64,000 bases of DNA. Source: Bdellovibrionales bacterium (GTDB lineage: Bacteria; Bdellovibrionota; Bdellovibrionia; Bdellovibrionales; JAGQZY01). The stretch lies in assembly GCA_964230645.1 (NCBI GenBank), contig CAXRHT010000002.1, positions 1,248,395 through 1,312,394 on the forward strand, written 5' to 3'. The notes under the pieces are model-generated. The model was not told the origin of the DNA. It worked only from the letters and a program-made list of their open reading frames with translations, and ran no database searches. Of the stretch, positions 145 through 64,000 are shown in pieces (the first letter of the stretch is position 1; every line of letters begins with the position of its first letter). The position numbers were made by a program, and so were the translations under genes.

Positions 145-750
145 TTAGAGAAGACCATCCTGACACATCTCGATGGTCTTTTGATGATTCATATAATAGA
201 CATCCGCCTGCCCTGCCCGTAAAGAGATAAAACCAGAGACTCCAACAACAAATGTCGAATCAGTTGTACTCATCCCCCCTAGGCCAGCACAAACAAAACA
301 GGCCACACAGTCCACACCAATCCTCGAGTGTCCGGCATTGGTTATCTCTGTCCAGGTTTTAAAATTAGGACAGTCGCCGCCACAATCACAGTCTTTATCA
401 TTGGCGGTGTTCCAGCAGTCATTGTCGTTGAAAGGCAAATTAACGTCCGTTCCGTCATTGGACCGGAAGCGATAAAACAAATCGCCAGTGGGTTGAAAAC
501 CCGTTTGAACAAGGTTTCCAGGATACACTCCGAACTCAGAACGTGTCGCTTGGGCGGCTGCGTAAAAAGAATTCATTAAAGCAAATCCTTCTTTTTGACG
601 AGCACGAGCCTGAAAGCCCTCGTATGAGGGAACGGCAATCATCATCACGATCCCGATAATAGCAACTGTGATCATCATTTCAACCAGAGTAAAACCTTGC
701 GAGTTCAGCGCTGGGAGTTTTGAATGTCGGCTAGAAATAGGTGTAAACAC
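145..750 (-). CDS. Type IV pilin-like protein (prepilin N-terminus, Cys-rich C-terminal domain)
   Basis: GTG start. Prepilin signature ...NSQG|FTLVEMMITVAIIGIVMMIAVPSY with Glu at +5. The C-terminal half has 8 Cys (DCDCGGDCPNFKTW, VDCVACFVC). It is a paralogue of the next gene. Confidence 0.85.
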   Translation of the reverse strand: MFTPISSRHSKLPALNSQGFTLVEMMITVAIIGIVMMIAVPSYEGFQARARQKEGFALMNSFYAAAQATRSEFGVYPGNLVQTGFQPTGDLFYRFRSNDGTDVNLPFNDNDCWNTANDKDCDCGGDCPNFKTWTEITNAGHSRIGVDCVACFVCAGLGGMSTTDSTFVVGVSGFISLRAGQADVYYMNHQKTIEMCQDGLL

Positions 751-758
751 TATTTATC

Positions 759-786
759 ACATCGGAAAAGCCAATAGGAAACTTTA
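759..786 (-). promoter_or_regulatory. Candidate sigma-28 (FliA)-type promoter upstream of pilin 145..750
   Basis: Minus strand reads TAAAGTTT-N12-TCCGATGT. The consensus I recall is TAAAGTTT-N11-GCCGATAA. The -10 element ends 8 nt before the GTG start. Confidence 0.4.
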
Positions 787-4507: not shown

Positions 4508-5407
4508 ATGATGAACGAAACTCTTCTTGGTCTTTTATTTCTCGCACTCGTTATTATTCTTCTCGCCCTTATCTTTCACTTACGGGCGGAAAAGGAAGTT
4601 AGCGAAAAAGAGATCGAGGGAAAATATTTTGACTCTCCTTGTGGCCCCCTCTTTTACCAAACCCATGGTAAAAAGGGACCCTGGATTCTTATGGTTCACG
4701 GCATTGGCTCCTCGACTTACTGCTGGCGAAACATTGTTCCCGAGTTCAAAGATAACTATAGAATTTTGACAGTGGACCTTTGGGGCTTTGGTTATAGCAG
4801 TAAAGACCTCTCCACTCCTATGTCTTTGGATGAACAAGTAAACCTGTTAAAAGCTCTAATCACTTATCTTAATATTGCTAACTATTATTATGTGGGTCAC
4901 TCTTTGGGGGGTGAAATAGGGCTATGGCTTGCACTCAAGGATCAAAGAATGGAGAAATGTATCGCCATAACCCCATCGGCTCACCCGAAACTGGTCTCTA
5001 ATATAGTCAAAAAATTCACTTGGGTGGCGAAGTGGACCCCAGTATGGCTGAGCAAGAAAACAATCCATCGCCTTTTAATGAACCTGATCCGCGAGAAATC
5101 CTTAATCGATGAAGAAATGATCGAATCCTATTATAGGCCCTACCAGGAGGCTTCGGCCCATCTGAGTTTTGCTGCCGCCTTAAATATTATTAGTGATCCC
5201 AGGGTTTTTAATAGCCTTCATAAAGTTCCTAAAGGAACAGTGATGCTTTGGGGAAAGACAGATCAAGTGATTCCAAAGAGGATCGCTCAAAAAATCCAAT
5301 CCAAAACACCTCAAGTTGAGCATTTTACCCATCCAACAGCGGGTCACCTTCCCACCGAAGACGATTATCCATGGGTTGTCGCCCATCTAAAAGCCCAGCT
5401 CAAATAA
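4508..5407 (+). CDS. Alpha/beta-fold hydrolase with N-terminal membrane anchor
   Basis: HGIGSS oxyanion region, GHSLGG nucleophile elbow, C-terminal AGH. Hydrophobic N-terminus LLGLLFLALVIILLALIF. Confidence 0.8.
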   Translation: MMNETLLGLLFLALVIILLALIFHLRAEKEVSEKEIEGKYFDSPCGPLFYQTHGKKGPWILMVHGIGSSTYCWRNIVPEFKDNYRILTVDLWGFGYSSKDLSTPMSLDEQVNLLKALITYLNIANYYYVGHSLGGEIGLWLALKDQRMEKCIAITPSAHPKLVSNIVKKFTWVAKWTPVWLSKKTIHRLLMNLIREKSLIDEEMIESYYRPYQEASAHLSFAAALNIISDPRVFNSLHKVPKGTVMLWGKTDQVIPKRIAQKIQSKTPQVEHFTHPTAGHLPTEDDYPWVVAHLKAQLK

Positions 5408-5446
5408 CAAAACTTCCGCTCCAGGCGAAAGTTTTGTAATCTTTTT
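5407..5446 (+). terminator. Rho-independent terminator after hydrolase gene
   Basis: ACAAAACTT...AAAGTTTTGT stem enclosing a CGC/GCG stem, followed by AATCTTTTT. Confidence 0.5.
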
Positions 5447-5547
5447 GTCACTTTCTCTCTGGACTTTCTTATTGATTTTAGGACGACTGTCCTAAGACGT
5501 GAATCCAGTTTTACCCCTATAGGTCTGAAAACCAGACTGTCGTCTCG

Positions 5548-5574
5548 TCAAGAGACTGACAGAAACCCCGATGG
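5548..5574 (+). promoter_or_regulatory. Weak candidate sigma-28-type promoter for flagellin
   Basis: TCAA-N15-CCCGATGG, about 52 nt upstream of the fliC ATG. This is the only CCGAT core in the intergenic region. Confidence 0.3.
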
Positions 5575-5626
5575 GTGTTTTGTCCAGTTTGGAAACTTTT
5601 AAAACAAAAAAACGGGAGGAAACATT

Positions 5627-6460
5627 ATGTCCATGCGAGTAGCGACAAACCTATCAGCCATTAACGCACAGCGAACGATGGCAAATAATAACAGAAACAT
5701 TGCTAACAGCTATGAGAAACTTTCTAGCGGTAGCCGAATTAACAAAGCGGCCGACGATGCCGCAGGTCTTGCGATCTCTGAAGGATTGAACGCTCAAATT
5801 CGTTCAGCTCGTCAGGCGAAAAGAAACTCAGAAGATGGAATCTCTTTGATTCAAACCGCTGAGGGTGGATTGGCCGAAATCGGTAACATGATCACACGCC
5901 TTAGAGAGTTAGGAATCCAAGCGGCTTCTGACACTGTTGGTTCTGAAGAAAGAAAGTTCATCAACGCTGAAGTAGATCAGCTAAAAGATGAAATGCAGCG
6001 TATCGCTGAAACAACGAAATGGGGAACAACCAATCTTCTTGACGGTTCAACACCTGTTTTTGACTTCCAGGTCGGTATTTTTAACAGCGATTCTGCTGAC
6101 AGAATCAGTTTTGATTCCTCTGGAAACGTAGCCACCATTGATGCTCTTGGGCTTTCTGGCCTAGATTTCACTGACAAAGTGGGAGCTCAAGGAGGTCTTG
6201 AAGAGCTAGATGCGGCTCAAAACGAAGTAAACCGTATTCGAGCCAATATGGGTGCTCTACAGAACCGATTAACAAACACGGTTTCCAACCTAGGAACCAT
6301 GCATGAGAACCTTTCTGCGGCCAACAGTCGTATTCGTGACACAGACGTGGCGGAAGTCTCTGCAGAACTGACTAAAAATCAAATTTTAATGCAGGCAAGT
6401 ACGGCAACACTCGCGCAAGCGAACCAGAAGAACAGCTTAGCATTACAACTACTTGGTTAA
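5627..6460 (+). CDS. fliC: Flagellin (short form, conserved N- and C-terminal helical domains)
   Basis: MSMRVATNLSAINAQR...SSGSRINKAADDAAGLAISE N-terminus and ...LTKNQILMQASTATLAQANQ...LQLLG C-terminus. GGGAGGA RBS. Confidence 0.93.
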   Translation: MSMRVATNLSAINAQRTMANNNRNIANSYEKLSSGSRINKAADDAAGLAISEGLNAQIRSARQAKRNSEDGISLIQTAEGGLAEIGNMITRLRELGIQAASDTVGSEERKFINAEVDQLKDEMQRIAETTKWGTTNLLDGSTPVFDFQVGIFNSDSADRISFDSSGNVATIDALGLSGLDFTDKVGAQGGLEELDAAQNEVNRIRANMGALQNRLTNTVSNLGTMHENLSAANSRIRDTDVAEVSAELTKNQILMQASTATLAQANQKNSLALQLLG

Positions 6461-11944: not shown

Positions 11945-11971
11945 TTAAGTTAAGTTCCAATACACCGATAA
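11945..11971 (+). promoter_or_regulatory. Candidate sigma-28-type promoter upstream of FecR-like gene
   Basis: TTAAGTTA-N11-ACCGATAA, 34 nt upstream of ATG 12006, which has a GAGGAG RBS. Confidence 0.4.
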
Positions 11972-12005: not shown

Positions 12006-13034
12006 ATGATTCGCTTTTTATTTATTCCTTTAATCTTTTTTCTCTTAAGTTCTCAGTCCTATGGAGCCGACTGTGGTCAGTTCAAGGTGGTTAAGGGAAA
12101 GGTGACCTTTCAGAAAAAGGGGCGCAAGCGTTTTCGAAAAGCCCGTATCAATAAAAAAGTCTGCCAAGGTGACAAGGTCAAAACCGAAACCGATTCTCGT
12201 GCCAAAATTGTTATGGCCGACCAAAACGAGATTAATATTTCTCCGCAGACAGAGCTTCTCATTGAGGTTTATGAAAAAGATCAAAAAGCAGTCCTCAATG
12301 TCCTCAATGGTAAGGTTCGCTCTAATGTAAAAAGGAAATATAAAGATGATGAGGACAATCACTACCGTGTAAAAACCAAGAGTGCCGTCGCTGGAGTTCG
12401 GGGAACCGAGTTTTTGGCAAGCTTTTCACGAGCGACCAACGAATCAAAAATTGTGACCTTTGAAGGAATCGTTAAAGTTGGAAGATTGCAAGGCCGCCGC
12501 ATTGTCGGAAGTGTGTTGGTTAAACCAGGCCACTTTACCTCCAATCGCGTGGGAAAGAATCCGCATCCGGCTAGGGAGATTCCTATTCAAGAGCTCTCGC
12601 AAATGGATCAGGAGACCAACCTTTTAGACACCCCTCGCGACGTTTCTAGTGATAGCGCGGGTGAGACTATTGATAGTAACGAAGAGGCGACACCAGAAAA
12701 CGGTGACAACAGTGGCAGTAAAAAGCCTAAACAAAGACAACCTGACTCGACCCAGCCTGATAGTGATGGCAACCTGGAATCTGGAGACTCTCGAGCTAAC
12801 AGAGGTGGACAAGCAAATACTAGAAAGCCTGATAGCATGCCTAATAAATTACCTCCTCCTGATCTTTCAATGAACGGACCAGAGCAAGGGCCCATTGATA
12901 TACCGAAAGCCCCAAGTATGATGATGCCGCCTCCTCCACCGATGATGGACGATACCATCTGCCAAAACTGCAAAGATCCGTTGATGAACCAGAAGGTGAA
13001 TCTAACGATTGTCCCCAGACTTCCGGGGCAATAG
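12006..13034 (+). CDS. Secreted FecR-domain protein with Pro-rich C-terminal tail
   Basis: Signal peptide. FecR-like pattern (KGKVTF...VCQGDKVKTETDSRAKIVMADQNEINISPQTEL...AGVRGTEF). C-terminal low-complexity PPPPPMM region. Confidence 0.75.
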   Translation: MIRFLFIPLIFFLLSSQSYGADCGQFKVVKGKVTFQKKGRKRFRKARINKKVCQGDKVKTETDSRAKIVMADQNEINISPQTELLIEVYEKDQKAVLNVLNGKVRSNVKRKYKDDEDNHYRVKTKSAVAGVRGTEFLASFSRATNESKIVTFEGIVKVGRLQGRRIVGSVLVKPGHFTSNRVGKNPHPAREIPIQELSQMDQETNLLDTPRDVSSDSAGETIDSNEEATPENGDNSGSKKPKQRQPDSTQPDSDGNLESGDSRANRGGQANTRKPDSMPNKLPPPDLSMNGPEQGPIDIPKAPSMMMPPPPPMMDDTICQNCKDPLMNQKVNLTIVPRLPGQ

Positions 13035-38963: not shown

Positions 38964-39111
38964 GTTTGAACCTACCTTAGTCCTGCATTGAAACACTTGA
39001 AAAATGAGCCCGCCCTAAAGCTCTTTTCTATTTGATTTTCTTGAAGTTTTTCCGAAAAAAACTAAAATAGTATATAGGTGCTAAAAAGAATTTTACCCTT
39101 GTAGGTTTAAG

Positions 39112-40629: not shown

Positions 40630-43600
40630 TTAGTCAAACGCAGTAACCCAAGCAAAATAAGCGTGAGTGCCCATGACCATAATTGTGTAGACCGTATGCT
40701 CACCGGCTGTGGTCGCACCGTGTCCGCTTGGTAAGTGAACTGTTAAAGATGTGGAGCCCGCATCACTATAGGCATTAAATGCACAGGTGCCGGATGTGGT
40801 TCCTTGCACTGCGAACGAATACGTTCCACCATCTTTTAAATTATGAAGATCAAAGGTTTGGCAGTTTTCACTTGTGTACTGTAAATTTCCATCATCAAAA
40901 TCGATGGTGGTCACAGCTGCACCATTAGAAATAGAGGCTGAGTTGCGAATGGCACCATTGACTTCAAGGGCGGATTGAGGACTCGCTGTACCTATTCCAA
41001 CGTTTCCAGCAAAATAGTTCGTATCGGAGGCTCCGACTTGGTAAACTCCATACTGATTGGTCCCTGACAAATCATCAATATAAAGTCCATAAGCATTTGT
41101 TAAAGTGCCGGAGTTTGAGTTTTTTGCACGAAAGCCGTAGGCATCAGTAACTGTTCCGCCGTTGACCTTGATTTCACTCAAAACACCAGTGTAGTCACCC
41201 ACTGTTCCAGCTAAATTTTCCATCTCGTTATAGCTACCTATACCCTGATTGAGACTTGTAGCCCAGTTCGAATTAATGTTGTAACTGCTAATTTGTTGGT
41301 CCTGGGCATTTGGAGAGTCACCACGGATAAGATTTCTAATTCCGATAATTTTACCTGAATGAGGATCACCATTTTTATACATCTCGTTGTTGATGTGCGC
41401 GTAGTCACCAGAGGCATCGAAGGGATTACTCTCGACACGGACCAAAGCTCCACCAAGATTTATCATATTTGCACTACCTACTAAGAAACTACCATCACTT
41501 CTTGCTGTTGCCACGGTCGAACCGTTTGCTTCTAAATTGAAATTGTAGTTATCATTTGTACCGATTGTTATTGCTGCACCATTTGAATTTCCACCATCAG
41601 CAATATCGCCAGAACCGCCACTGATTCCACTGGAGAGATCAAGACAGTTGGAGTTATTTTCATCACAAATTTCAGACGCATTGATCGACCCGGTTCCAAC
41701 ATCTAGAGCGACGGCCGGAGCTGTTGTACCAATCCCTACCCTTCCGTTTGGTGCCAAGGTGACGTAGTCCTGATAGGTACTGCCATCGAAATAATTAAAC
41801 ATTAACTTATCGGCATCAGCGCCGACGGTCGATCCGTTGCGGTAGTTAATGCTCCACTGATTTGCGTTGACCGTATTAGCCAGATTAAAATACGAATAGT
41901 TGTAGGCATCTAAAGAGCCTCCTGTTGAAGTGACCACGCCCGCGCCTGTGTCGCCATAAGCTTCCACCGCTGCCGCTGAAAAATCACCTGACACCTCTAG
42001 CATTTTACTAGGACTTCCCGTGCCAATTCCAACATTTCCAGAGGCTGTCACTCTTAATCTCTCACTACCCGCTGTGGTTAAGGCAATACTGTTGGCCACG
42101 GGGTCATGGATACCGGTATCGTTATCACCAGTAAAACTATAATCAAGATCCGCTCCGGCACCATAGCCGGCGTCAATTCTATTGAAAAAACTAAAGGAAC
42201 CCGTATTCCAACGGAGAACCTGTCCTCCGTTTAACGCAAATCCCAGATCGTCTTCCGCAAATCGAAAAAAACCCATATCCTGATCACTATTAAATGTAAG
42301 GGCAGGACTTGCTCCTGTACCATCTGCGAGTAAGAGACTATCAGTCATTGGCACCGATCCGTCAGCGAGGAAGTCTCCCCCTGAACCGCCGCCAGATGTA
42401 TCCACCCAAGTGGAGCCATCATAAAACTTCAGTTTATTAGAATCAGCACTATCAACAGCTATATCCCCTGCAGCAGGAGATCCTGGAAGAGTCGTTGGTG
42501 TAATTCGTGCGGGACCATCTACATGTAGCAGGCGTGCTGGAGCTGTTGTTCCGATTCCTACATTACCCGAGCTATCGATACGAACCCTTTCATCGTAAGC
42601 TGTGGCCCCTGTCTGCTGCCCAATAACAATGTCAGGTGTTCTTCCAGAAGAGTTTGCAATCGCTCCTATGTAAGCCTCTTGTTGGTCAGACGCCAAGTTT
42701 CTAGCTTGTAAACTTAATCCTGCCATTGCAGAGTCTAAATTGTCGGTATTTTGCACATGAGGTCCTACCATCACCGGACGATAATTACTTGATGAAGAAG
42801 GGGCATAGACTCCCCAGGTTCCTGGATAGGAAACCAACAAAGGATTTAAAACGCTTATTCCACCACTATGGGCGTACATCTGCATCGTACCAGCCGCACT
42901 TAATCCCAATGAATCTCCGAAAGGTCTAAAAATACCTGTGTCTTCATCACCTTCAAAGGCGACACCTGGAAAAGAGGCCGAACCGAAGTCAGCCTCAAGG
43001 GCACCCGTCATTGGCACACTACCATCAGCTAGGAAGTCACCAGAACCCGAACTCCACCCTGCTGAAATATCTTGGCAATTGGCTCCTGTTTCATCACAGA
43101 TTTGTTCGGCTCTTATACTACCAGCCACATCCAACAGAGAGCCTGGAGCTGTGGTTCCGATTCCAACATTACCACTATCATCGATTCTGAATCTTTCCTG
43201 ATAAGACGTGGCTCCGGTTTTTTGCCCGAGAACTATTGCCGGTGAGCTTCCAGTAGACTCTGCAACAACTCCTAAGTAGGCACTCTGATTTGTTGAACCA
43301 CTGTTGGTAACCTGAAGTGAAACCCCTCCATAGGAATTATCTAGTGAGTTTGTATTATAGAAAGTCGCTGTACCTCCATCAGGGCCATATAAACTACCAC
43401 TTGAAGGAGAGTAGGTACTTGAACTCCAAATTCCTGAAAAGAGGGGACGGAATAGCGTAATAGCGGATCCGTTAAGAGCCATCACTCCATTGCCTCCCAC
43501 GCTCAGAGCCATTTCATCAGAACCCGATCGAGTGATGCCAGTATCCTCGTCACCATCGAATGTGATACCTGGTGAAGCTGAAGTTCCGTACACAGCCTCA

Positions 43601-46600
43601 AGGGCTCCGGTCATGGGCACACTACCGTCAGCTAGGAAGTCACCAGAACCCGAACTCCACCCTGCTGAAATATCTTGGCAATTGGCTCCGGTTTCATCAC
43701 AGATTTGTTCGGCTCTTATAATCCCTGCCACATCTAACAGAGAGCCTGGAGCTGTGGTACCAATTCCGACATTTCCTGTCTGAGTAATTTCCATAATATG
43801 GTTGTTATTAGCGGCAATAGCTATGTCGGAATTCACCGACTCTAAATACAAATGGTCTCGGGCCCAAGGCACTCCGACCGCGTCGTTTCCGTAACCAACC
43901 CATCCAGCTACAGCTCCCAGTTCGTCTTGAAACTCTATTGTGTTGTAATTACTGTTTGATGTGGACTGAAGAACAACTGTGGTATCGGCGCTGACGATCT
44001 CAAGAGGCCAAGAAGGATTGTTCGTACCAATTCCCACAAAACCTGAGGAATTAATTCTCATGGCCTCAGATCCTCCAACGGAGAAACCAAGTGTATCAGC
44101 TCCGGCTCTATAAATTCCTGTGTCTTCATCACTATTAAATGTGTAACTGGGAAAACCTTCACTTGATCCAGAGTTCAATCTAAACGAGCCAGCATTGTTA
44201 TACTCGATACCTGTCTGATTAAAAGTCATACGCTGAACGCCGTTGACGCTAACACCCATATTATCAGGCGCTGCAGAAAAGAAACCAGTATTGCTGTCGT
44301 TCGCAAAAGAAATACTTGGGGCAGCCCCTGTGCCGTCACCAGCTAGTAAAGTGTCACCATCAGTGTATCCTGTACTTATACCAGCGGACAAATCGATACA
44401 GTTAGTATTGTTCTCATCACATATGGAGGCGGCATTTATTGTTCCTGTGTCGACATCTAACTCAACTCCAGGATTGAGAGTATTGATACCCACATGGCCG
44501 GTATCTTCTACAACCAATCTATGAGCATTGTTATCAATATCATAAACAGCAAACCAGTTATCGACACCATCATCCAAAACATCGATCTTAAAACCTTTTC
44601 CACTCGTTGCATTTGGAGTCAAAGCTAAGCTAGCTGTATTGTCTCCGCTTGGGCGATCTCCAATGACCACGGACTCGTTGACGGTGGGAGCCCTTTTCTC
44701 TCCACCGGCAAGAAGTTGGCCGGCAACATCTAATTTACCAGCAGGAGTTTGAGAGCCTATTCCGACTTGTCCTGTGGCATCGATTCGAACAGCTTCATTA
44801 CCACCGGTAGTAAAGGCCAATTGGTCGGCAGCACCAAGGAACATTCCTGTGTTGGCATCACTTGCAAATGAAACGGCAGGGTTTCCCTGGTTTCCATCGA
44901 TGGCATCAAATTGACCCGTCATTGCCACTGAGCCATCAGCCATAAAATCGCCAGAACCAGAACTCCAGCCCGTTGAAATATCTTGGCAATTGGCTCCAGA
45001 TTCATCACAAATTTGCTCTGCACGAATAATTCCTGCAACATCCAATTCAGAAGCTGGGCTCGTTGTACCAATTCCAACATTTCCAGTAGAACCAATCAAA
45101 GTCATCAATTCCGTGAGAGCACTGGATTGCCTAACATAAAAATGAATATCTCCTGAGGCACTATTGGCACCCCTCGTAGAAGCTAAACGGCCAGAGTCCA
45201 CACCACCACTTTCAAATAATATTCCGGAACCTCTGGAATCACCAGCGCTTGTGTTTGTAAGCTTAAGACTGTCACTGATCCCCGTAAAATTTCTGAATAT
45301 CTCAACTTTTTCATCGGGGGTTGTGGTACCTATACCAAGATTTCCGACACTATTGATACGCATTCGTTCACTACCACCATCAGTGCTGAAACTTATGGAT
45401 TCGCCGGTATCGGCATCAATATTAATTAAACTTCCATTCCAGCCGATTGCACCATAATAACCACCACCAAAATGACGGAAATTAATTCTATTAGCATTGC
45501 CTGAAGAGCCATTTCTTAGATTTAACTCAACTCCGTTGGTATCACTGGCTCCACCGTAGCCGAACATTTGAAAAACTTCGGAACCATTCATATCAAAACG
45601 AATATCATCATCATCGGGCCCTGCCTCTAACCGAATTCGTGTGTCACCATCAGTGTCTTGGAGGACTGATCCTGGAGAATTGCTACCTACTAAATCAATC
45701 CAGGCCCCACTTTCATACCCCTCAAGCTTGGAAGTAGTAGTATTATAACGAAGCATCCCGTTTTCACCGGTGCCAGGTCGCTCACCGGTTGTCCCCTGAG
45801 GAACGACAATCGCATCAGTACCTGATACATCGAGGATAGCGGCGGGATTTGTTGTCCCAATCCCCACATTGCCTGAGGTATCCACTGTAATCGCTGTTGA
45901 ACCATTGGTAAGTAGGCTCAAGTTTTGAGCGTTTGTGGTTCCAATTTCGAGATCTCCTGCAGGAGCATTTCCACCGTCAATCACGTAACCATCATCAGCT
46001 ATAATCGCTTCGACTTCTGCGTTGGAAAGAACGAAGTTTGAGCGAGTCATCTTCCTTAAAGCACCAACGGAGGCATCATAGATAAGAATTTCATCACCTG
46101 CGGCGACTGAGGCCTCGGCGGTTTCGTTAGTAATATCTACGTTGACCCCTGTTCCATCCACTGTGATCGCATCTCCACCTTGCACGGCTAGAGTGCGATC
46201 GACGGAAAGATCACCACCACCGGTTAATCCATTACCCGCTGTGATTGATCTTGAATCAGAAACTTTGTCAGCCTCTAGCTCCACAAGGGCTGCTTGTAAA
46301 GTTGTTGCAGTTAATGGTGTGGTTCCTACAGGAATCACTGTCGGATCAAAAGCACTTTCATCAAGTGTTAAGATGACATTGTCGGCATCAGAAGAAACGG
46401 CAATTTTGCCATTGGCAGAACCGACAGATTTGAATTCAAGATTTAATCCGTTCTTAGCTTTAAAAACACCTTCACCCGTTCCAACATTAGCCCCATCGTT
46501 GACTTCACCACCTGCAGCGGTTCCAAAGGCTGTCCAAGTGGAGCCATCACAAAATGAAACGGCTCCGCCTACGTATTTTAATGTTCCCTCTTTTGTACCA

Positions 46601-49600
46601 TTACAGAGAGCCGCATCGTTACCAATTTGCACCCCACCAGCAACTTGTAATTGCGAGGTGGGAGTTGTGGTTCCGATACCAACAAGACCGCTGTTTTGAA
46701 TAGTCATTCGGTTAGAGGCATTGGTACCAAAATGTAGATCTGTGTTTGCGAGATTCCAAACATAGGCGTCTCCTCCCCCAGCTACACTCGCAATACCTAA
46801 AGCTAAAGTGCCGGCATCTGACGCCGTACCTATTGTCGCTTCAGCATTAACCCCTGGATCTAAATTGATAACACCAACACCCGTGGACGCATTGTCTGAA
46901 TCAACAATCTCCAGTTTACCACTAGGATTAGAAGTTCCAATTCCCACATTTCCTGAGGAGTCGACGGTCATTACTGTCGAATTATTTGTTAAGAAAGTTA
47001 AGTCTTCGGCGTTTGTTGTACCAATATCTAACGAGCCAGTTGGTGCATTTCCACCATCGATAACATAACCGTCATCAGCAATAATCGCTTCCACTTCTGC
47101 ATTTGAAAGTACAAAGTTCGAACGAGTCATTTTTCTTAAGGCACCAGCGGAGGCATCGTAAATTAAAACTTCATCACCTGCCGCAACTGACGCTTCTGCG
47201 GTTTCGTTGGTTATATCGACATTAACGCCTGATCCGTCCACTGTGATAGCATTGCCACCAACTACTTCGATATCATCCGCATTTACATTAATACCGTTTC
47301 CAGCACCGACGGCTAAAGTTCGGTCCGTACTTAAATCGCCGCCACCAACAAGACCTCCACCAGAGACGACGGCTCTTGAGTCAGAAACTTTATCGGCTTC
47401 AAGTTCTACAAGTGCTGCCTGTAAAGTCGTTGCGGTTAACGGTGTTGTCCCTACAGGAATCACTGTTGGATCAAAAGCATTTTCATCAATTGTTAAGGTG
47501 ACATTATCAGTATCAGAGGAAACAGCTATCTTTGTATTAGCTGAGCCAATCGATTTGAATTCAAGATTCAGACCGTTTTTCGATTTAAAAACTCCCTCAC
47601 CGGTTCCAACATTGGCTCCATCATTGACCTCTCCACCAGCAGCGGTTCCAAAAGCTTCCCAGGTTGTACCATCACAAAAAGAAACAGATCCTGCGTCGTA
47701 CTTTAAAGTTCCGGCTTTTGTTCCATCGCATAGGGCTACATCATCACCAATTTGTACACCACCAGTTACCTGTAACTGAGCTGTTGGAGTTGATGTGCCG
47801 ATACCAACGTTTCCATCCTCTCGAATTATCATTCTTTGAGTGTTGGAGCCGCCACTTGCAGTTGAAAATGAAATTCGGCCATCATTATCCGGGTCAGCCC
47901 CTGTCGAAATATCTATACCGGCTATTCGAGTTCCATCATTGTTTGCTCTTAAAGAAAAAACACCCGCACCAGAAAATGTCCTGTCTGCATCTACCAGCAA
48001 TTTTACATCATTATTACCAGTGTTTGTTAAAGCTATATTCGAGCTAGTTGCACTGTATATTTGGAGTTTAGAAGTCGGTGCCGTCGTTCCAATACCGACA
48101 TTCCCATTGTCATCAACAATAAAACTGGTTGCTCCGTTATCTTGTACTTGAAAGTTATTAGTGCCAGTCAGGTTCCACACAACATCCGTGGAGTCCACTG
48201 TTATCGCAGAACCATTGTTGTAGGCATCGTCTAAACTTTGAGTTTCCGCAGTTAAGTATCCTGCGGCCGCATGATCTCCCCAAGCAAAGGCCTGATCCCA
48301 ATCTGCCGAGTTATCGGTGATACTGCTATAAGTTCCAGGTGCTGTGCGAACTAAAATACCATTTCCAGACCACACAGTATCAAGCTCAGTTCCAGTGATG
48401 TTTTGTAAAAATCCTTCATTGGAAGCGAAGGTTCCAACCTCACTTTGACTCAGTACAAAATTTGACCTTGTGATTTCTTTTAAATTCCCAGCGTCTTCAC
48501 TGTCTCTAATTAAAAGACTATCGGCAGCAACGGCAGAAGTTAATTTGTCAGCCGTTCCAGCGACATCAACATTAACACCTGTACCATCCACACTTATTCC
48601 GTTTCCAGCTCTGACTTCAATGTCGTCAGCATTCACTGTAATACCGTTGCCAGCTCCTATATCAAAAGTGCGATCAGAGCTTAGGTCACCACCACCAGTT
48701 AAACCTTGACCTGCTGTTACACTTCTTGATTCTGCAGCCACACTTGTCCAAGAGAGAACTCCGGCACCACTTGTTTGTAGCACTTGCCCTGCTCCACCGT
48801 CGTCATCCGGGAGAGTCCACACAAAGGAAGACACTGCATTTACAGTGTTCGGCGCCTGGAAACCAACGTACTTTGTTCCCGTATCCTGAAATCTTAATTC
48901 TGTAGTCACACCACCATTAAGATCCATCACCAGATTTCCGGTCATAGAGTCGCCACTTTTAGCGACCTTTTCAGCACTTAATTCTTCAATCGCTCCCTGA
49001 ACTTCTGTGGCTGTATCCACATCACCACCATAGGTGTTATCAAAAGTGATCAGGTCAGCATCGTAGTCGCCGGCTGTAGCTATAACATTGCCTGTGCGAC
49101 CGAAAACTTGAGTGACTCCCGCGTTGACATCCTGCCAGGAGAGCACTCCACTTCCATCGGTTTGTAAGTATTGTCCAGGGTCACCATCGTTATCCGGTAG
49201 AATTAAATTAACCGGTGCCGCAAGGGCTGCTGGTGATTTTAAAGAGACATAATCAGAACCGTTTCCGGTAGCCTCAGCAAGTTGTAACTCACTTTCGTTT
49301 TCTAAGTTAATATTACCAGCAGAATTAATCCCGTTGGTAACACCAATCCCACCCGAGACGGTAAGGTTGTTGCCTATACTAGCATCTTGGCCCGCACTTA
49401 AATTATTGGTGGCAGAAATATTGTTGTTAGCTGAAATATCATTCGCATTGGTGATGTCTTGATTTCCCATGTTGATGGAACCAGTCATGGTTCCACCCCC
49501 CAATGGGAGTTTATTCACATCGTTTATCACTTGCGAGTTCCACTGCGTGCCATCCCAGGTCAGGACTTCGCCATTCTGACCGGCACCAAGAGCACCGAGG

Positions 49601-50373
49601 TCCGCGGTATCGACCTGTTGTCCACCGATGTAGCTGCGAGCATAGCCGACGTTCACAGCGTCGGAATCTGTGGCTGGATTAGGATCCGCGAGATTAACTA
49701 TTTTTTGGTTGTTGTTGTCGACGTCTGCTGTTGGAGCGCCCGCTGTAAAACTCGTGCTTGTTCCATCAAGAAGAGCTTGTAGCTCGTTCCAGTTGCTATC
49801 GCTAAAGACAAACTCAAGATTTGTTTGGTCTAGATTAAATCCAGTCCCACTATTGATTCTTAGAATTTCAGGAGCACTAAGACCACCAATGGTCGAAGCA
49901 CTGGTGGCGTAGGGAACGCTGACAACATTGTGATCTTGAGCCACTGTCACAGGACCTGAACCATCATCAAAGGTCACTCGCAGTTTTCTGCCATCAGTGG
50001 AATCCGCCGTGTAGCTGGGACCCATCACACAATCCGTGGGAGTGACCGTACCGATAGCATTATCGAGAGCGTCGGAAAGGCTGGTCAGGTCTTCGTAAGA
50101 TCCATCACCAGGCTTGGAGCCCTCACCGACTATCAGACTGAAAATTCCATTAGAATTAGTCATGTTAAGAGTGTGAGATTCTTTATAAAGCACACAAAGC
50201 TCTGGCTCTGGGGAAAGAACTTCAATGGTAAATTGTACGGTGCTCGCCTCAAGGGCTTGACCGTTGGGTTTGATGATTTGACCTTGATAGGTAAATTTTG
50301 CAGGCCCTGCGAGAGCTTGAGCGGCTGCGAAAAAGGTCAAAAATAGAATCAATAAATATCTTTTAACGTGCAC
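40630..50373 (-). CDS. Giant secreted fibre protein (3247 aa) built from tail-fibre-like modules
   Basis: GTG start. Sec signal MHVKRYLLILFLTFFAAAQALA|G. 16 copies of G(N)VGIGTxxPxxxLxV, 7 copies of FxxDxDTG(I/M/F)(F/Y), 5 disulfide-loop motifs ICDExxxNCxDxS, and (G)GTMTG / GDSMTG, LTGGGDLSxDRT and ERPxxxxxGMLRYN...W motifs. G/T/S/N/D-rich. All opposite-strand ORFs are shadows. Confidence 0.9.
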   Translation of the reverse strand: MHVKRYLLILFLTFFAAAQALAGPAKFTYQGQIIKPNGQALEASTVQFTIEVLSPEPELCVLYKESHTLNMTNSNGIFSLIVGEGSKPGDGSYEDLTSLSDALDNAIGTVTPTDCVMGPSYTADSTDGRKLRVTFDDGSGPVTVAQDHNVVSVPYATSASTIGGLSAPEILRINSGTGFNLDQTNLEFVFSDSNWNELQALLDGTSTSFTAGAPTADVDNNNQKIVNLADPNPATDSDAVNVGYARSYIGGQQVDTADLGALGAGQNGEVLTWDGTQWNSQVINDVNKLPLGGGTMTGSINMGNQDITNANDISANNNISATNNLSAGQDASIGNNLTVSGGIGVTNGINSAGNINLENESELQLAEATGNGSDYVSLKSPAALAAPVNLILPDNDGDPGQYLQTDGSGVLSWQDVNAGVTQVFGRTGNVIATAGDYDADLITFDNTYGGDVDTATEVQGAIEELSAEKVAKSGDSMTGNLVMDLNGGVTTELRFQDTGTKYVGFQAPNTVNAVSSFVWTLPDDDGGAGQVLQTSGAGVLSWTSVAAESRSVTAGQGLTGGGDLSSDRTFDIGAGNGITVNADDIEVRAGNGISVDGTGVNVDVAGTADKLTSAVAADSLLIRDSEDAGNLKEITRSNFVLSQSEVGTFASNEGFLQNITGTELDTVWSGNGILVRTAPGTYSSITDNSADWDQAFAWGDHAAAGYLTAETQSLDDAYNNGSAITVDSTDVVWNLTGTNNFQVQDNGATSFIVDDNGNVGIGTTAPTSKLQIYSATSSNIALTNTGNNDVKLLVDADRTFSGAGVFSLRANNDGTRIAGIDISTGADPDNDGRISFSTASGGSNTQRMIIREDGNVGIGTSTPTAQLQVTGGVQIGDDVALCDGTKAGTLKYDAGSVSFCDGTTWEAFGTAAGGEVNDGANVGTGEGVFKSKNGLNLEFKSIGSANTKIAVSSDTDNVTLTIDENAFDPTVIPVGTTPLTATTLQAALVELEADKVSDSRAVVSGGGLVGGGDLSTDRTLAVGAGNGINVNADDIEVVGGNAITVDGSGVNVDITNETAEASVAAGDEVLIYDASAGALRKMTRSNFVLSNAEVEAIIADDGYVIDGGNAPTGSLDIGTTNAEDLTFLTNNSTVMTVDSSGNVGIGTSNPSGKLEIVDSDNASTGVGVINLDPGVNAEATIGTASDAGTLALGIASVAGGGDAYVWNLANTDLHFGTNASNRMTIQNSGLVGIGTTTPTSQLQVAGGVQIGNDAALCNGTKEGTLKYVGGAVSFCDGSTWTAFGTAAGGEVNDGANVGTGEGVFKAKNGLNLEFKSVGSANGKIAVSSDADNVILTLDESAFDPTVIPVGTTPLTATTLQAALVELEADKVSDSRSITAGNGLTGGGDLSVDRTLAVQGGDAITVDGTGVNVDITNETAEASVAAGDEILIYDASVGALRKMTRSNFVLSNAEVEAIIADDGYVIDGGNAPAGDLEIGTTNAQNLSLLTNGSTAITVDTSGNVGIGTTNPAAILDVSGTDAIVVPQGTTGERPGTGENGMLRYNTTTSKLEGYESGAWIDLVGSNSPGSVLQDTDGDTRIRLEAGPDDDDIRFDMNGSEVFQMFGYGGASDTNGVELNLRNGSSGNANRINFRHFGGGYYGAIGWNGSLINIDADTGESISFSTDGGSERMRINSVGNLGIGTTTPDEKVEIFRNFTGISDSLKLTNTSAGDSRGSGILFESGGVDSGRLASTRGANSASGDIHFYVRQSSALTELMTLIGSTGNVGIGTTSPASELDVAGIIRAEQICDESGANCQDISTGWSSGSGDFMADGSVAMTGQFDAIDGNQGNPAVSFASDANTGMFLGAADQLAFTTGGNEAVRIDATGQVGIGSQTPAGKLDVAGQLLAGGEKRAPTVNESVVIGDRPSGDNTASLALTPNATSGKGFKIDVLDDGVDNWFAVYDIDNNAHRLVVEDTGHVGINTLNPGVELDVDTGTINAASICDENNTNCIDLSAGISTGYTDGDTLLAGDGTGAAPSISFANDSNTGFFSAAPDNMGVSVNGVQRMTFNQTGIEYNNAGSFRLNSGSSEGFPSYTFNSDEDTGIYRAGADTLGFSVGGSEAMRINSSGFVGIGTNNPSWPLEIVSADTTVVLQSTSNSNYNTIEFQDELGAVAGWVGYGNDAVGVPWARDHLYLESVNSDIAIAANNNHIMEITQTGNVGIGTTAPGSLLDVAGIIRAEQICDETGANCQDISAGWSSGSGDFLADGSVPMTGALEAVYGTSASPGITFDGDEDTGITRSGSDEMALSVGGNGVMALNGSAITLFRPLFSGIWSSSTYSPSSGSLYGPDGGTATFYNTNSLDNSYGGVSLQVTNSGSTNQSAYLGVVAESTGSSPAIVLGQKTGATSYQERFRIDDSGNVGIGTTAPGSLLDVAGSIRAEQICDETGANCQDISAGWSSGSGDFLADGSVPMTGALEADFGSASFPGVAFEGDEDTGIFRPFGDSLGLSAAGTMQMYAHSGGISVLNPLLVSYPGTWGVYAPSSSSNYRPVMVGPHVQNTDNLDSAMAGLSLQARNLASDQQEAYIGAIANSSGRTPDIVIGQQTGATAYDERVRIDSSGNVGIGTTAPARLLHVDGPARITPTTLPGSPAAGDIAVDSADSNKLKFYDGSTWVDTSGGGSGGDFLADGSVPMTDSLLLADGTGASPALTFNSDQDMGFFRFAEDDLGFALNGGQVLRWNTGSFSFFNRIDAGYGAGADLDYSFTGDNDTGIHDPVANSIALTTAGSERLRVTASGNVGIGTGSPSKMLEVSGDFSAAAVEAYGDTGAGVVTSTGGSLDAYNYSYFNLANTVNANQWSINYRNGSTVGADADKLMFNYFDGSTYQDYVTLAPNGRVGIGTTAPAVALDVGTGSINASEICDENNSNCLDLSSGISGGSGDIADGGNSNGAAITIGTNDNYNFNLEANGSTVATARSDGSFLVGSANMINLGGALVRVESNPFDASGDYAHINNEMYKNGDPHSGKIIGIRNLIRGDSPNAQDQQISSYNINSNWATSLNQGIGSYNEMENLAGTVGDYTGVLSEIKVNGGTVTDAYGFRAKNSNSGTLTNAYGLYIDDLSGTNQYGVYQVGASDTNYFAGNVGIGTASPQSALEVNGAIRNSASISNGAAVTTIDFDDGNLQYTSENCQTFDLHNLKDGGTYSFAVQGTTSGTCAFNAYSDAGSTSLTVHLPSGHGATTAGEHTVYTIMVMGTHAYFAWVTAFD
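42991..43776 (-). repeat. Two adjacent 603-bp (201-aa) units whose first 183 bp are near-identical
   Basis: 42991-43173 versus 43594-43776: 13 mismatches by hand count and 60/61 aa identical (GNVGIGTTAPGSLLDVAG(I/S)IRAEQICDETGANCQDISAGWSSGSGDFLADGSVPMTGALEA). The remaining ~140 aa of each unit are far more diverged. Confidence 0.85.
44908..45084 (-). repeat. Third, more diverged copy of the 183-bp cassette
   Basis: Residues 1764-1824: GNVGIGTTSPASELDVAGIIRAEQICDESGANCQDISTGWSSGSGDFMADGSVAMTGQFDA. Confidence 0.8.
45844..47814 (-). repeat. Large internal duplication (period 1125 bp / 375 aa)
   Basis: Residues 854-1150 versus 1229-1510 are collinear. Protein is mostly identical apart from a 15-aa indel, while the DNA carries many synonymous differences. 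A partial third copy lies at 48436-48723 (res 551-646). Confidence 0.85.
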
Positions 50374-50379
50374 AAATAG

Positions 50380-50406
50380 TTATCGGACTAAGTGCTTAAG
50401 AGTTTA
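50380..50406 (-). promoter_or_regulatory. Sigma-28 (FliA)-type promoter of the giant fibre gene
   Basis: Minus strand reads TAAA-N15-TCCGATAA (equivalently TAAACTCT-N11-TCCGATAA). It is followed by CTATTT and then the GTG start codon. Confidence 0.5.
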
Positions 50407-61149: not shown

Positions 61150-61176
61150 TTCACTTTTCTCTTATATTGCCGATAA
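61150..61176 (+). promoter_or_regulatory. Sigma-28-type promoter of the second fibre gene
   Basis: TTCACTTT-N11-GCCGATAA, where the -10 is a perfect match to the consensus I recall. It is followed by GTATAT and then GTG 61183. Confidence 0.45.
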
Positions 61177-61182
61177 GTATAT

Positions 61183-64000
61183 GTGCACGTTAGTAGAGGA
61201 TTTTTTTTATTTTTAGGGCTTTTATTATCAGCCTCATTTTCTTTCGCCGCCCCGGCGAAGTTTACCTATCAAGGTCAAATCATCAAACCCAATGGTCAAC
61301 CTCTTGAAGACAGTAATGTGGCCTTCAGAATAGAAATTGTTTCTCCAGGGCCTGAAGCTTGTATTCTCTATGAAGAAACTCATACCTTGAATATGTCAGC
61401 TTCAAACGGAATTTTTAGTGTCACAGTGGGTGAGGGCGCTCGCCCCGGTGACGGAAGTTTTGAAGACCTCACAACTCTTCGCGACGCTCTTGATAATTCC
61501 ACAGGACTTGTTTCTCCCACCGATTGCACAGGGGGGCCTAATTACACCCCTGCGATCGATGATGGCAGAAAATTGAGAGTCACTTTTAACGATGGATCCG
61601 GACCTGTGACTCTGACTCAAGATCACAACGTGGTCAGTGTACCTTTTGCTAGCAGTGCTCACAGTGTGAGTGGGCTCACGGCAACGGACTTATTAACTAT
61701 TCGTGATGATGCCAGTTTTCAATTAAACCAAGCCAATCTGGAAACTGTTTTTTCAAATGCCAACTGGGCGGAACTCCAAGCCCTTCTTGATGGTTCGAGC
61801 AGCAGTTTTGTGCAACCAGCCCCCACGGGGGATGTGGACAATAATAACCAAAAAATCGTCAACCTGGCAGACCCTGATCCAAATGAAGGAAAGGATGCTG
61901 TTAATGTCGATTACGCCAATAGCTACATCGGTGGACAGGCAGTGGACACAGCTGACCTCAGCACTTTGGCCGTTGGGAATGCTGACGAAGTTTTAACCTG
62001 GAACGGAACCCAGTGGACTTCAACCAGTATTCCCGAGGACACGACAAAACTCAACAAAGCCGGTGACACCATGAGTGGCACGCTTAATATGGGCAATAAT
62101 GACATCACCAATATTAACAATCTCTCTGTTAACTCCACCATCTCTGTGACTGGAGGAATTGGAGTGGGCACAGGGATTAATTCCGGTGGGACCATTAATT
62201 TACAAAATGAAAACGCACTTCAGTTTTCTGAAAACTCTGGTAACGGCACTAACTTCGTTTCTTTAAAAGCTCCCAATGCACTCGCTAGCGATTTGAGCTG
62301 GACACTTCCGAGCACTCAAGGCACTCCAGGGCAGATGCTACAAGCCGGAACAGGCGGAACTCTATCCTGGGCAGATCCTAGTGCCATCGGCTATCTTCAA
62401 GATGGTGGTAATAGCACTGGAGCTTCCATTCGTGTGGGAACGAACGATTCACAGTCTCTTGAACTTGAAACTAACAACACTGCGCGAATGACTTTAGACA
62501 GCACAGGTGATGTGGGAATCGGTACGACAAATCCATGGGAACGACTGACCGTTGTAGGTGGAGGAATATCCGTTCAAGATACTATAAATGGAGGGACTGC
62601 GACGGCTTTGTCTCTCAATAACCCCCACGCAGGATTTGGTGGTCCAAGAGTTGGTATGGATTTTAGCTTGGGCACAGGAAGCGTGACCTATTCAAGAATT
62701 TCATCGGGAGCCGAAGCCTCTAACCGTGGGTCTCTTCGCTTTTTTACTCGAGGTACTACACCTTCTATTGGTATTTATGAAAGAATGACTATTAACGAGG
62801 ATGGAAATGTTGGAATCGGTACGTCCGATCCTTCAGAGCGTCTTGAGGTGAACGGTACTATACGTAGCCAGGACTTGGTAGTTCAGGGGACAACTGGTTC
62901 TGCCCATAGTGTTTATATTTCTAATGCTTCCAACGGAATATACTTGGGAGTTGACGGCTATGAAAATGGGACGATAAATGTAGAAAGATCCAACTCCGAC
63001 CTTCGATTCCAAATTGCCGGTTCAGATCAAATGAGAATTCTTGATTCAGGAAATGTAGGTATTGGGACATCAAACCCCTCCACTAAATTAGAGGTAAACG
63101 GGACCCTCACGGCTTCGGCTTATGTCGGAAATGGGTCGGGACTCACAAACGTCACTTCAACAAGCTCTACCTCCTCTACTAATACTAGTAACTATATTAT
63201 TAATTCGGACTCCGACAACACTGGTGCTGATGGAGGAGTGAGTTTTCAAACCAACGGCTCAACCGTCGCTTCCGTAAGTGCCTCAGGTCAGCTTAATGGA
63301 AACTCTGGTTCTGTGGGCTCTGTTGGCATCGGATTTCAAGGAGACTCTGATACCGGGCTCTACTCCCCTATTGTGGATACGGTTTCACTATCCGCTGGTG
63401 GCATTGAGGGGTTGAGAATCAACAATACTCCCAGTGGTGTGAACTATGTTGAACTTTATCCTGGGGCCACTGGAGCTGGACCAACTATCGCTTCGGCTGG
63501 AAGTGATACTAATATTGATATCAATTTTACTCCCAAAGGGTCTGGACATAGTATTTTTACATCAGGACGGGTTGGCCTCGGCGTCTCTAACCCCTCTGAA
63601 CGCCTTGATGTGCAAGGAAACATTAATTTATCAGGTCGTATTTTTGGTGGAGAAACGGATTCGTACCTCGATATCCACGGTGGCGGAGGGCGAATCATAG
63701 GTAACAATAGAACAGTGATTAGTGGCTCAAAAGGCTCACAGCTTAACATTAGTGTAGGCGATGAACTAGAAGCGGGGTCGGGTCGCATTCGAATGAAACT
63801 CGACACTGGCTTTCGTGATGACACGCCCGACGCCACTGTTGAAATTAGTGCGGATGGTTCGACGACCGGAAGTGCTTTTATGGTGAGTTCCGATGATAAT
63901 AATGATGGAGATCTTGTTAATATCTTAAAGAATGGCGATGTCGGCATTGGAACCTCGAGTCCTTCTTCAAAATTTGAGGTGGTTGGAACTGTTACCGCTT
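61183..64000 (+). CDS. Second giant fibre protein, 5' partial (open to window end, at least 939 codons)
   Basis: Not in the ORF track because no stop is reached. My hand translation of the 5' ~440 codons (61183 to about 62500) and of the last ~23 codons, both in frame 1, found no stop; the ORF track lists no competing frame-1 ORF in between. Starts GTGCACGTT: MHVSRGFFLFLGLLLSASFSFA|APAKFTYQGQIIKPNGQPLE..., collinear with the first ~410 aa of 40630..50373. It then reads DGGNSTGASIRVGTND...GDVGIGTTNP, and the last visible motif is GDVGIGTSSPSSKFEVVG. Confidence 0.85.
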   Translation, partial: MHVSRGFFLFLGLLLSASFSFAAPAKFTYQGQIIKPNGQPLEDSNVAFRIEIVSPGPEACILYEETHTLNMSASNGIFSVTVGEGARPGDGSFEDLTTLRDALDNSTGLVSPTDCTGGPNYTPAIDDGRKLRVTFNDGSGPVTLTQDHNVVSVPFASSAHSVSGLTATDLLTIRDDASFQLNQANLETVFSNANWAELQALLDGSSSSFVQPAPTGDVDNNNQKIVNLADPDPNEGKDAVNVDYANSYIGGQAVDTADLSTLAVGNADEVLTWNGTQWTSTSIPEDTTKLNKAGDTMSGTLNMGNNDITNINNLSVNSTISVTGGIGVGTGINSGGTINLQNENALQFSENSGNGTNFVSLKAPNALASDLSWTLPSTQGTPGQMLQAGTGGTLSWADPSAIGYLQDGGNSTGASIRVGTNDSQSLELETNNTARMTLDSTGDVGIGTTNPWERLTVVGGGISVQDTINGGTATALSLNNPHAGFGGPRVGMDFSLGTGSVTYSRISSGAEASNRGSLRFFTRGTTPSIGIYERMTINEDGNVGIGTSDPSERLEVNGTIRSQDLVVQGTTGSAHSVYISNASNGIYLGVDGYENGTINVERSNSDLRFQIAGSDQMRILDSGNVGIGTSNPSTKLEVNGTLTASAYVGNGSGLTNVTSTSSTSSTNTSNYIINSDSDNTGADGGVSFQTNGSTVASVSASGQLNGNSGSVGSVGIGFQGDSDTGLYSPIVDTVSLSAGGIEGLRINNTPSGVNYVELYPGATGAGPTIASAGSDTNIDINFTPKGSGHSIFTSGRVGLGVSNPSERLDVQGNINLSGRIFGGETDSYLDIHGGGGRIIGNNRTVISGSKGSQLNISVGDELEAGSGRIRMKLDTGFRDDTPDATVEISADGSTTGSAFMVSSDDNNDGDLVNILKNGDVGIGTSSPSSKFEVVGTVTA

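Follow-up and report, generated by a model that had tools for sequence, protein, structure and literature searches.

Predicted FliA-type promoters abutting the GTG start codons of two MAT fibre genes in a Bdellovibrionales bacterium point to leaderless mRNAs

Two fibre genes of the MAT family

The 64,000-nucleotide (nt) stretch of DNA analyzed here in its entirety (the window) is taken from contig CAXRHT010000002.1 (positions 1,248,395 to 1,312,394, forward strand) of the Bdellovibrionales bacterium assembly GCA_964230645.1 and carries two genes for large surface fibres, whose start regions are the subject of this study. Fibre 1 is encoded on the minus strand (40630..50373) as a protein of 3247 amino acids (aa) with the predicted signal peptide MHVKRYLLILFLTFFAAAQALA/GP (the slash marks cleavage), whereas fibre 2 lies on the plus strand (61183..64000) and continues past the end of the window, so that at least 939 aa of it are seen. 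Both proteins match the NCBIfam model NF053851 (Bdello_MAT_N, mosaic adhesive trimer family chimeric fiber protein) at 130.4 bits (fibre 1) and 144 bits (fibre 2) against a cutoff of 60, and phmmer searches with fibre 1 recovered the solved MAT (mosaic adhesive trimer) fragments 8OND (Bd2133, 1e-07), 8OML (Bd1334), and 8OJN (Bd3182). These matches identify the fibres as members of the MAT family, which Bdellovibrio bacteriovorus uses in prey recognition (Caulton 2024, PMC10769870).

The two proteins share with the B. bacteriovorus family (PMC10769870) the N-terminal domain, the signal peptide, and NVGIGT-type capping-loop repeats, here as repeated GNVGIGTxNP motifs comparable to those in the capping-loop alignment of Caulton 2024 (PMC10769870). 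Fibre 1 differs in its size, compared with 627 to 1959 aa for those members in B. bacteriovorus HD100 whose length was retrieved, and in that no S74 peptidase domain was detected in it; a Pfam search returned no match in either fibre, Peptidase_S74 included for fibre 1. Fibre 1 also contains internal repeats of about 360 aa (LSNAEVEAIIADDGYVIDGGNAP... at residues 1089 and 1449). The two fibres are 58% identical over their first 419 aa and, judged by this similarity, are paralogues; any likeness between their promoters thus does not represent two independent events.

FliA-type promoters next to the fibre start codons

Directly upstream of each fibre gene, we found a motif of the kind recognized by the sigma-28 factor FliA. 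In fibre 1 (minus strand), a -35 element TAAA (50403..50406, in the context CTAAACTC) aligns with the TTAAG/CTAAA -35 block of the HD100 FliA promoters and is followed by 15 nt (50402-50388), the -10 octamer TCCGATAA (50380..50387), and a 6-nt spacer CTATTT (50374..50379), whose final pyrimidine would be position -1. The GTG start codon, which is also the predicted transcription start site, comes next and opens a conserved box, GTGCACGTT (50365..50373). Fibre 2 (plus strand) has the -35 region TTCACTTT (61150..61157), with a TTCA-type block of a sort common among mapped HD100 FliA promoters, then 11 nt (61158-61168), the octamer GCCGATAA (61169..61176), the 6-nt spacer GTATAT (61177..61182), and the predicted transcription start site at a GTG in the same GTGCACGTT box (61183..61191). 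Agreement with the sigma-28 -10 consensus extends to seven of the eight positions of TCCGATAA and to all eight of GCCGATAA. Both promoters keep the canonical spacing between -35 and -10 (N15-16 to CCGATA; N11 between octamers), and the -35 element of fibre 2 is the weaker of the two, at the canonical N11 inter-octamer distance. Within the window, GTGCACGTT occurs exactly twice, in both cases at a fibre start, and exact matches to CCGATAA-N6-GTG are confined to these same two sites.

Because of the 6-nt spacing, the TAA of the octamer (50380-50382, minus; 61174-61176, plus) is an in-frame stop for the fibre open reading frame (ORF), so that the promoter closes the frame two codons before the start and neither ORF can be extended upstream. 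In the downstream direction, the signal peptide region of fibre 2 contains no other ATG, GTG, or TTG, and that of fibre 1 offers as sole alternative a TTG at codon 8, the use of which would remove the charged n-region. The original prediction, made from the letters of the window, had given these strings and coordinates, together with those of a pilin site considered below; all of them were recovered on rereading, as were its figures for consensus agreement at the two octamers, and its statement that no alternative start keeps the signal peptide holds. An ATG overlapping the GTG (ATGTG, -2 frame) was considered as a start and rejected: the spacer ends in AT in only five of nine homologous genes and is thus not conserved in this respect, and in fibre 2 such a start opens an ORF of 11 codons.

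To score these sites, we used a weight matrix trained on 87 experimentally mapped FliA promoters of HD100 (Karunker 2013, Table S2, PMC3627812), in fixed- and flexible-spacer versions, over 128 kb (both strands of the window). With the fixed-spacer matrix, fibre 2 scores 17.4 and is the top site of the 128 kb, and fibre 1 scores 15.2 (17.0 with the flexible spacer), the median of the training set being 15.7. Fibre 1 is one of four sites in the window that reach at least 15 in the matrix scan. The flexible-spacer version likewise gives four sites at or above 15, and the three of these that are intergenic and correctly oriented belong to the two fibres and to a FecR-like ORF at 12006. Sites above the lower-quartile threshold number 6 in the window against 2.7 expected in Markov-1 random sequence. 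Among random 73-nt stretches of the window, just 0.15% reach a flexible-spacer score of 15 and 1.5% reach 10.5. The shorter 7-mer CCGATAA is found 17 times in the window against 5.95 expected from shuffles, with 14 of the 17 copies in coding regions and several inside fibre 1; these could be intragenic FliA-like sites or an effect of codon composition.

Mapped start sites of B. bacteriovorus HD100

Karunker et al. 2013 (PMC3627812) mapped 140 attack-phase transcription start sites in HD100 and found TTAAG-N16-CCGATA at two thirds of them, which bears out the statement of the original prediction that FliA-type promoters were reported on attack-phase genes of Bdellovibrio. In Table S2 of that study (PMC3627812), transcription starts exactly at the first nucleotide of the annotated start codon for 21 of 93 FliA promoters, and the distance is 0 to 3 nt for 26; the comparison figure for the non-FliA promoters of the table is 4 of 47. 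We cross-referenced the list of 21 HD100 MAT genes from Caulton 2024 (PMC10769870) with this table and found eight that are exactly leaderless (Bd0705, Bd0884, Bd1130, Bd1334, Bd1712, Bd2133, Bd2582, and Bd3266), with octamers of the GCCGATAA type and transcription starting 6 to 7 nt after them. Leaders of 2 nt (Bd2740) and 3 nt (Bd2735-2734) are also found among the MAT genes, and the family is enriched among the leaderless FliA transcripts of HD100 (odds ratio, 8.2; p = 0.0012). Since the HD100 start-site maps show the leaderless layout for the MAT family, the fibres of the window would be a further, GTG-starting example of it.

The fibre promoters resemble those of HD100 (PMC3627812) in their -35/-10 architecture, in having MAT genes as targets (annotated there as "cell wall surface anchor family"), and in the placement of the octamer 6 to 7 nt before the start, but they differ in a spacing of 6 nt rather than the usual 7 and in a GTG in place of the A-starting cases of HD100. 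The organism itself also differs from HD100 in being a separate Bdellovibrionales lineage of about 43% GC (as measured over the window), with uncultured Bdellovibrionales as its nearest relatives.

FliA-type attack-phase promoters are thus on record already, and published supplementary data contain the leaderless layout of MAT genes without describing it. The word "leaderless" is absent from Karunker 2013 (PMC3627812) and from a 2025 toolbox paper that reuses Pbd1130 with an added ribosome-binding site, and a nonexhaustive literature search on Bdellovibrio and leaderless transcripts returned nothing relevant. A few rows of Table S2 (Bd0704, Bd2088, and Bd1283) place HD100 start sites inside annotated ORFs, directly after good octamers; Bd2088, for instance, reads ACCGATAA-7 nt-ATG at a point 6 nt past the annotated TTG. 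The starts of these three genes would thus seem to be misannotated and the genes to be leaderless in reality.

Conservation in homologous fibre genes

Homologous fibre genes were collected from species-representative genomes (L001 to L023), from a metagenome (L024), and by exact-protein look-ups (L026 to L036); the metagenome contig scan gave two loci, and the bulk of the comparison comes from the genome scan and the look-ups. A sigma-28 site scoring at least 10.5 lies within 75 nt of the start in all 26 distinct fibre upstream regions, as against 4 of 48 control ORFs of the window, and 17 of the 26 reach at least 15. The distance between octamer and start codon is bimodal. Eleven genes have exactly 6 nt (nine with GTG and two with ATG), and four others (L029, L009, L016, and L030) have 8 to 10 nt; the remaining eleven stand 23 to 59 nt away, with a Shine-Dalgarno-like motif in 8 of the 11. 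The chance probability of 11 of 26 regions sharing one given distance is about 2e-14, a figure that overstates independence, since some loci are paralogues or orthologues (L026, for example, is the orthologue of fibre 2). In all eleven 6-nt genes, position -1 is T and position +1 is a purine.

When the nine 6-nt genes that start with GTG are compared in pairs, mean identity is 0.89 in the octamer and 0.82 at +1 to +9, compared with 0.38 to 0.41 further upstream, 0.58 in the spacer (whose terminal base is always T), and 0.50 at +10 to +30. High identity is thus confined to the octamer and the first nine positions, which argues that the promoter and the first codons are under selection and the remainder is not. 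By these alignments, 11 homologous genes of several uncultured Bdellovibrionales retain the octamer and its fixed 6-nt spacing between diverged flanks.

An explanation of a different kind is that the upstream likeness is a leftover of duplication or gene conversion with no promoter role and that transcription comes from elsewhere with a long leader. The paralogy of the fibres would permit this, as would the mosaic, recombining nature of MAT genes, exemplified by the nine near-identical 5' ends in a single metagenome-assembled genome (MAG; L013 to L021). Against it, upstream sequences from the two fibre lineages cannot be aligned beyond the octamer and positions +1 to +9 (identity of about 0.4), the same elements recur with different flanks in fibre genes of several other genomes, and a sigma-70 consensus scan of the two intergenic regions of about 290 nt found no such promoter on the fibre strands. 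We therefore consider this explanation extremely improbable.

The nine fibre genes just mentioned (MAG CBDBGT01, three contigs) come with two promoter/leader versions ahead of their shared 5' coding ends: L016 and L017 read TCCGATAA-9 nt-ATG, and the other seven genes read TCCGATAC-38 nt with AGGA-ATG. Leaderless and leadered forms are hence exchanged for one another inside a single genome, apparently through recombination ahead of an N-terminal module that the genes have in common. An arrangement closer to that of HD100 was met in L034 (Bdellovibrio sp. MAG GCA_016853205.1, 401-430), where a MAT gene reads TCCGATAA-GTTATAC-ATGAAATTCCTGCACGTA, with 7 nt and an ATG; protein searches for the HD100 MAT genes gave matches only in metagenome-assembled Bdellovibrio sp. 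relatives, L034 among them.

Predicted leaderless start on GUG

On the basis of these observations, we propose that a sigma-28 promoter, composed of the -35 TAAA/TTCA block, a spacer, and the -10 element (T/G)CCGATAA, drives transcription of each fibre gene. Sigma-28 polymerase would begin 7 to 8 nt after the octamer, at a purine preceded by a pyrimidine; of the 81 HD100 promoters whose spacing is 6 or 7 nt, 69 have a pyrimidine at -1, and a purine almost always occupies +1. The sole pyrimidine-purine step at the seventh or eighth position after the fibre octamers, where 81 of the 87 HD100 starts fall, is a T-G step in which the seventh nucleotide is the G of GTG, and with this start, the mRNA would begin 5'-GUGCACGU... 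and have neither an untranslated leader nor a Shine-Dalgarno sequence. A ribosome carrying the initiator tRNA would then bind the 5'-terminal start codon directly, the product would be a signal-peptide-bearing MAT fibre acting as a surface adhesin for prey recognition, and its expression would follow the attack-phase FliA regulon. In keeping with this proposal, no Shine-Dalgarno-like 4-mer was found upstream of the fibre starts, where the octamer at -14 to -7 leaves no room for one. The first 60 nt of the two transcripts are predicted to be weakly structured (minimum free energies of -3.3 and -6.0 kcal/mol; shuffled sequences are at least as stable), and the 5' GUGCAC is unpaired in seven of nine predicted homologue folds. 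An Rfam scan of the whole window found no RNA family and hence no riboswitch or known leader element.

The central claim of the original prediction, that a FliA-type promoter places the 5' end of the mRNA on the GTG, is thus supported by three independent lines of evidence, namely, motif quality, conservation in the family, and the HD100 start-site maps. We regard a FliA-type promoter with a leaderless GTG start at both fibre genes as probable; the transcription start site itself, the dependence on FliA, and efficient translation of the 5'-terminal GUG are inferred for this organism.

Several observations weigh against this interpretation. Shine-Dalgarno-like 4-mers are present in only 22 of 50 window ORFs, which makes their absence at the fibres weak evidence, and several of the family members compared share a genome or are close relatives, so that the 26 regions are not fully independent. 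All eight leaderless MAT precedents in HD100 start with A (ATG), and none starts with GTG; where bacterial leaderless mRNAs usually have a 5'-terminal AUG, the two fibres have GTG, as do 9 of the 11 six-nt homologues. Leaderless mRNAs initiated by GUG are known, though for the most part they work inefficiently in bacteria other than actinobacteria. In Caulobacter reporters, leaderless GUG is translated much less than AUG, and non-AUG codons make up 4.4% of Caulobacter leaderless mRNAs (PMC8459731); in mycobacteria, leaderless GUG is about as common as AUG (PMC8459731). Retention of GTG in the family could reflect either an initiation apparatus tolerant of it in this lineage or selection for low translation of very large fibres. 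The dominant octamer-to-start spacing in HD100 is 7 nt (67 of 87 promoters, compared with 14 for 6 nt), and applied to the fibres, it would move the start to the U, so that the GUG codon would be lost. The G at +3 is also preceded by a pyrimidine, forming a second T-G step (T8-G9) two bases further on. Two further points concern the sigma factor itself: no fliA gene was seen in the 64 kb of the window, and its flagellin gene lacks a good site, as described below.

The points on spacing can be read as signs that the sigma-28 promoter is real but that transcription starts 1 to 2 bases away from the G of GTG (at the spacer A, the U at +2, or the G at +3), giving a leader of 1 to 4 nt or a lost start codon; the fibres would then be made inefficiently or from a subset of the transcripts. 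The 8- to 10-nt gaps of L029, L009, L016, and L030, which imply leaders of 1 to 4 nt, are also in line with this reading. We consider it quite unlikely, given that eleven genes have precisely 6 nt with a T at -1 and a purine at +1 and that HD100 itself provides documented cases of a purine start at 6 nt, among them the MAT gene Bd0705. Moreover, the 8-nt spacing required by the second T-G step is rare (3 of 87 HD100 promoters), and fibre 2 would have no usable start codon if transcription began at +2 or +3.

The predicted fibre transcripts resemble the known leaderless mRNAs (lambda cI and those of Caulobacter, Deinococcus, mycobacteria, and haloarchaea) in having a predicted 5'-terminal start codon, no Shine-Dalgarno sequence, and a weakly structured predicted 5' end. 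They would differ in their conserved GUG, as most bacterial leaderless mRNAs outside actinobacteria use AUG, and in having an alternative-sigma promoter instead of a housekeeping one. A parallel comparison can be made with the class 3 sigma-28/sigma-D promoters of enterobacteria and Bacillus (TAAAGTTT-N11-GCCGATAA): the consensus and spacing are alike, with the fibre 2 -10 element matching at 8/8 and a pilin -35 element at 8/8, but the classical sigma-28 targets are flagellin, motor, and chemotaxis genes with ordinary leaders and ribosome-binding sites, whereas those described here would be leaderless adhesin fibres.

A conserved box at the first nine positions

The sequence GTGCACGT(T/A), which includes the palindrome GTGCAC, is invariant at +1 to +9 in eight of the nine GTG genes used for the identity comparison, representing about seven lineages, while +10 to +30 and the spacer diverge. 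This raises the prospect that the box is a functional nucleic acid element, either an operator overlapping the start or a 5' RNA signal that tunes initiation on the leaderless GUG, a view compatible with the promoter interpretation favored here. The persistence of GTG in the 6-nt genes, even though AUG is normally favored on leaderless mRNAs, speaks for such a role, as does L034, in which TGCACGTA, with its TGCACGT, is located 9 nt inside the ORF (protein MKFLHV), as if three codons had been added before an ancestral GTGCACGTA start. In the other direction, three genes share the 6-nt geometry and lack the box (L007, GTGAGG; L006, ATGAACGTT; L031, ATGGTG), from which it follows that the GTGCACGT box is not required for this architecture, and neither a conserved 5' RNA structure nor an Rfam match accompanies it. 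In a synonymous-site analysis of the eight sequences, the codon CAC is used in 8/8, but so is CAA for a conserved Gln codon, so that this analysis cannot separate a constraint on nucleotides at GTGCACGT from conservation of Met-His-Val. A nucleic acid function of the box is accordingly possible in our estimate, if doubtful.

Flagellin, pilin, and other candidate members of the regulon

Outside the fibres, the window is ordinary chromosome, with the nuo operon, purH, alr, clpB, recO, mgtE, two PilA-like pilins, a flagellin, a subtilase, and PilZ and response-regulator genes. The flagellin gene (5627..6460, plus strand; Pfam Flagellin_N and Flagellin_C) was taken as an internal positive control for sigma-28 and failed as such: the best score upstream of it (5407-5626 searched) is 6.4, for a weak TCAAG-N15-CCGATG, and the gene has a long leader and a strong GGGAGG ribosome-binding site. 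So poor a site at a classic FliA target is unexpected and sets the window apart from the class 3 flagellar systems.

Together with the lack of a fliA gene in the window, the flagellin result is what can be advanced for the notion that the fibre promoters are genuine but are recognized by some sigma factor that is not the FliA orthologue, or need an additional activator, with no tie to FliA or motility. Even for HD100, direct demonstrations of FliA dependence are limited to two promoters, flp1 (tad operon) and fliC, both assayed in a heterologous host (PMC5430801). Nevertheless, the fibre octamers agree with the sigma-28 -10 consensus as closely as described above, and the -35 block and its spacing fit the mapped HD100 consensus TTAAG-N16-CCGATA. 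To our knowledge, CCGATAA is recognized by no other known sigma factor, which also counts against this notion, and we judge it very unlikely. With FliA retained as the predicted factor, the proposal that the fibres are coregulated with motility stands in one part: membership in the attack-phase FliA regulon is favored by the evidence, whereas the link to motility is weaker, the flagellin of the window being without a good site.

A further candidate sigma-28 site (748..786, minus strand) precedes a pilin gene (145..750, minus strand) with N_methyl/PilA domains, PF07963 and TIGR02532 matches, and the cleavage motif ...NSQG/FTLVEMM. It consists of TAAAGTTT (786-779), a 12-nt spacer, TCCGATGT (766-759), 8 nt (GATAAATA), and a GTG (750-748), and its flexible-spacer score of 14.0, with a -35 element matching at 8/8, is above the 99th percentile of random stretches. 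The original prediction took this pilin to have the same layout as the fibres. The strings are indeed present, but the fit is weaker, in that the -10 element is CCGATG, the 8-nt gap predicts a leader of about 1 nt, and pilA of HD100 has been described as not FliA regulated (PMC5430801). We therefore regard a sigma-28 site at this pilin as plausible but weaker than those of the fibres. The gene is the first of two tandem PilA-like pilins (145-750 and 854-1483, both on the minus strand), and it alone of the two has a site resembling sigma-28 promoters. At 19 aa, the prepilin leader predicted for it (MFTPISSRHSKLPALNSQG/FTLVEMM) is unusually long, with no conventional alternative start codon.

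Sigma-28-type sites were also noted at two genes with ordinary leaders, both on the plus strand: ACCGATAA (11964-11971), 34 nt before the FecR-domain ORF 12006, which has a GAGGAG ribosome-binding site, and TCCGAAAA (39051-39058), 53 nt before the response-regulator ORF 39112. Both genes are candidate members of the fibres' regulon.

Implications for attack-phase gene expression

To the published record, this analysis adds the family-wide conservation of the arrangement, the bimodal division into leaderless and leadered genes, the 6-nt GTG variant, and the GTGCACGT box. The conserved GUG, unusual for leaderless mRNAs outside actinobacteria, may mean that the start-codon requirement is relaxed in these bacteria or that translation of the fibres is deliberately throttled.

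A more far-reaching idea, which we think unlikely as things stand, is that the attack-phase sigma factor of the Bdellovibrionales and leaderless translation form a coupled channel for prey-contact proteins (the MAT fibres and perhaps the pilin), with GUGCACGU as a 5' control element. Were this true, Shine-Dalgarno-independent, 70S-type initiation would be favored or tuned in the nongrowing attack-phase cell, and the transcripts of one clade would begin with a conserved 5'-GUGCACGU signature.

MAT fibres are recently identified prey-recognition adhesins of Bdellovibrio, and the expression of their approximately 20 paralogues has so far not been described. Those who reuse such promoters in engineering (e.g., Pbd1130 in the 2025 toolbox paper mentioned above) should be aware that the native transcripts probably have no ribosome-binding site. 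FliA-type promoters that abut the start codon across the order would furnish a simple sequence rule for recognizing attack-phase surface genes in uncultured predators and would also give correct start-codon calls for MAT genes, while tying leaderless translation to the attack-phase sigma factor in a concrete way that can be tested.

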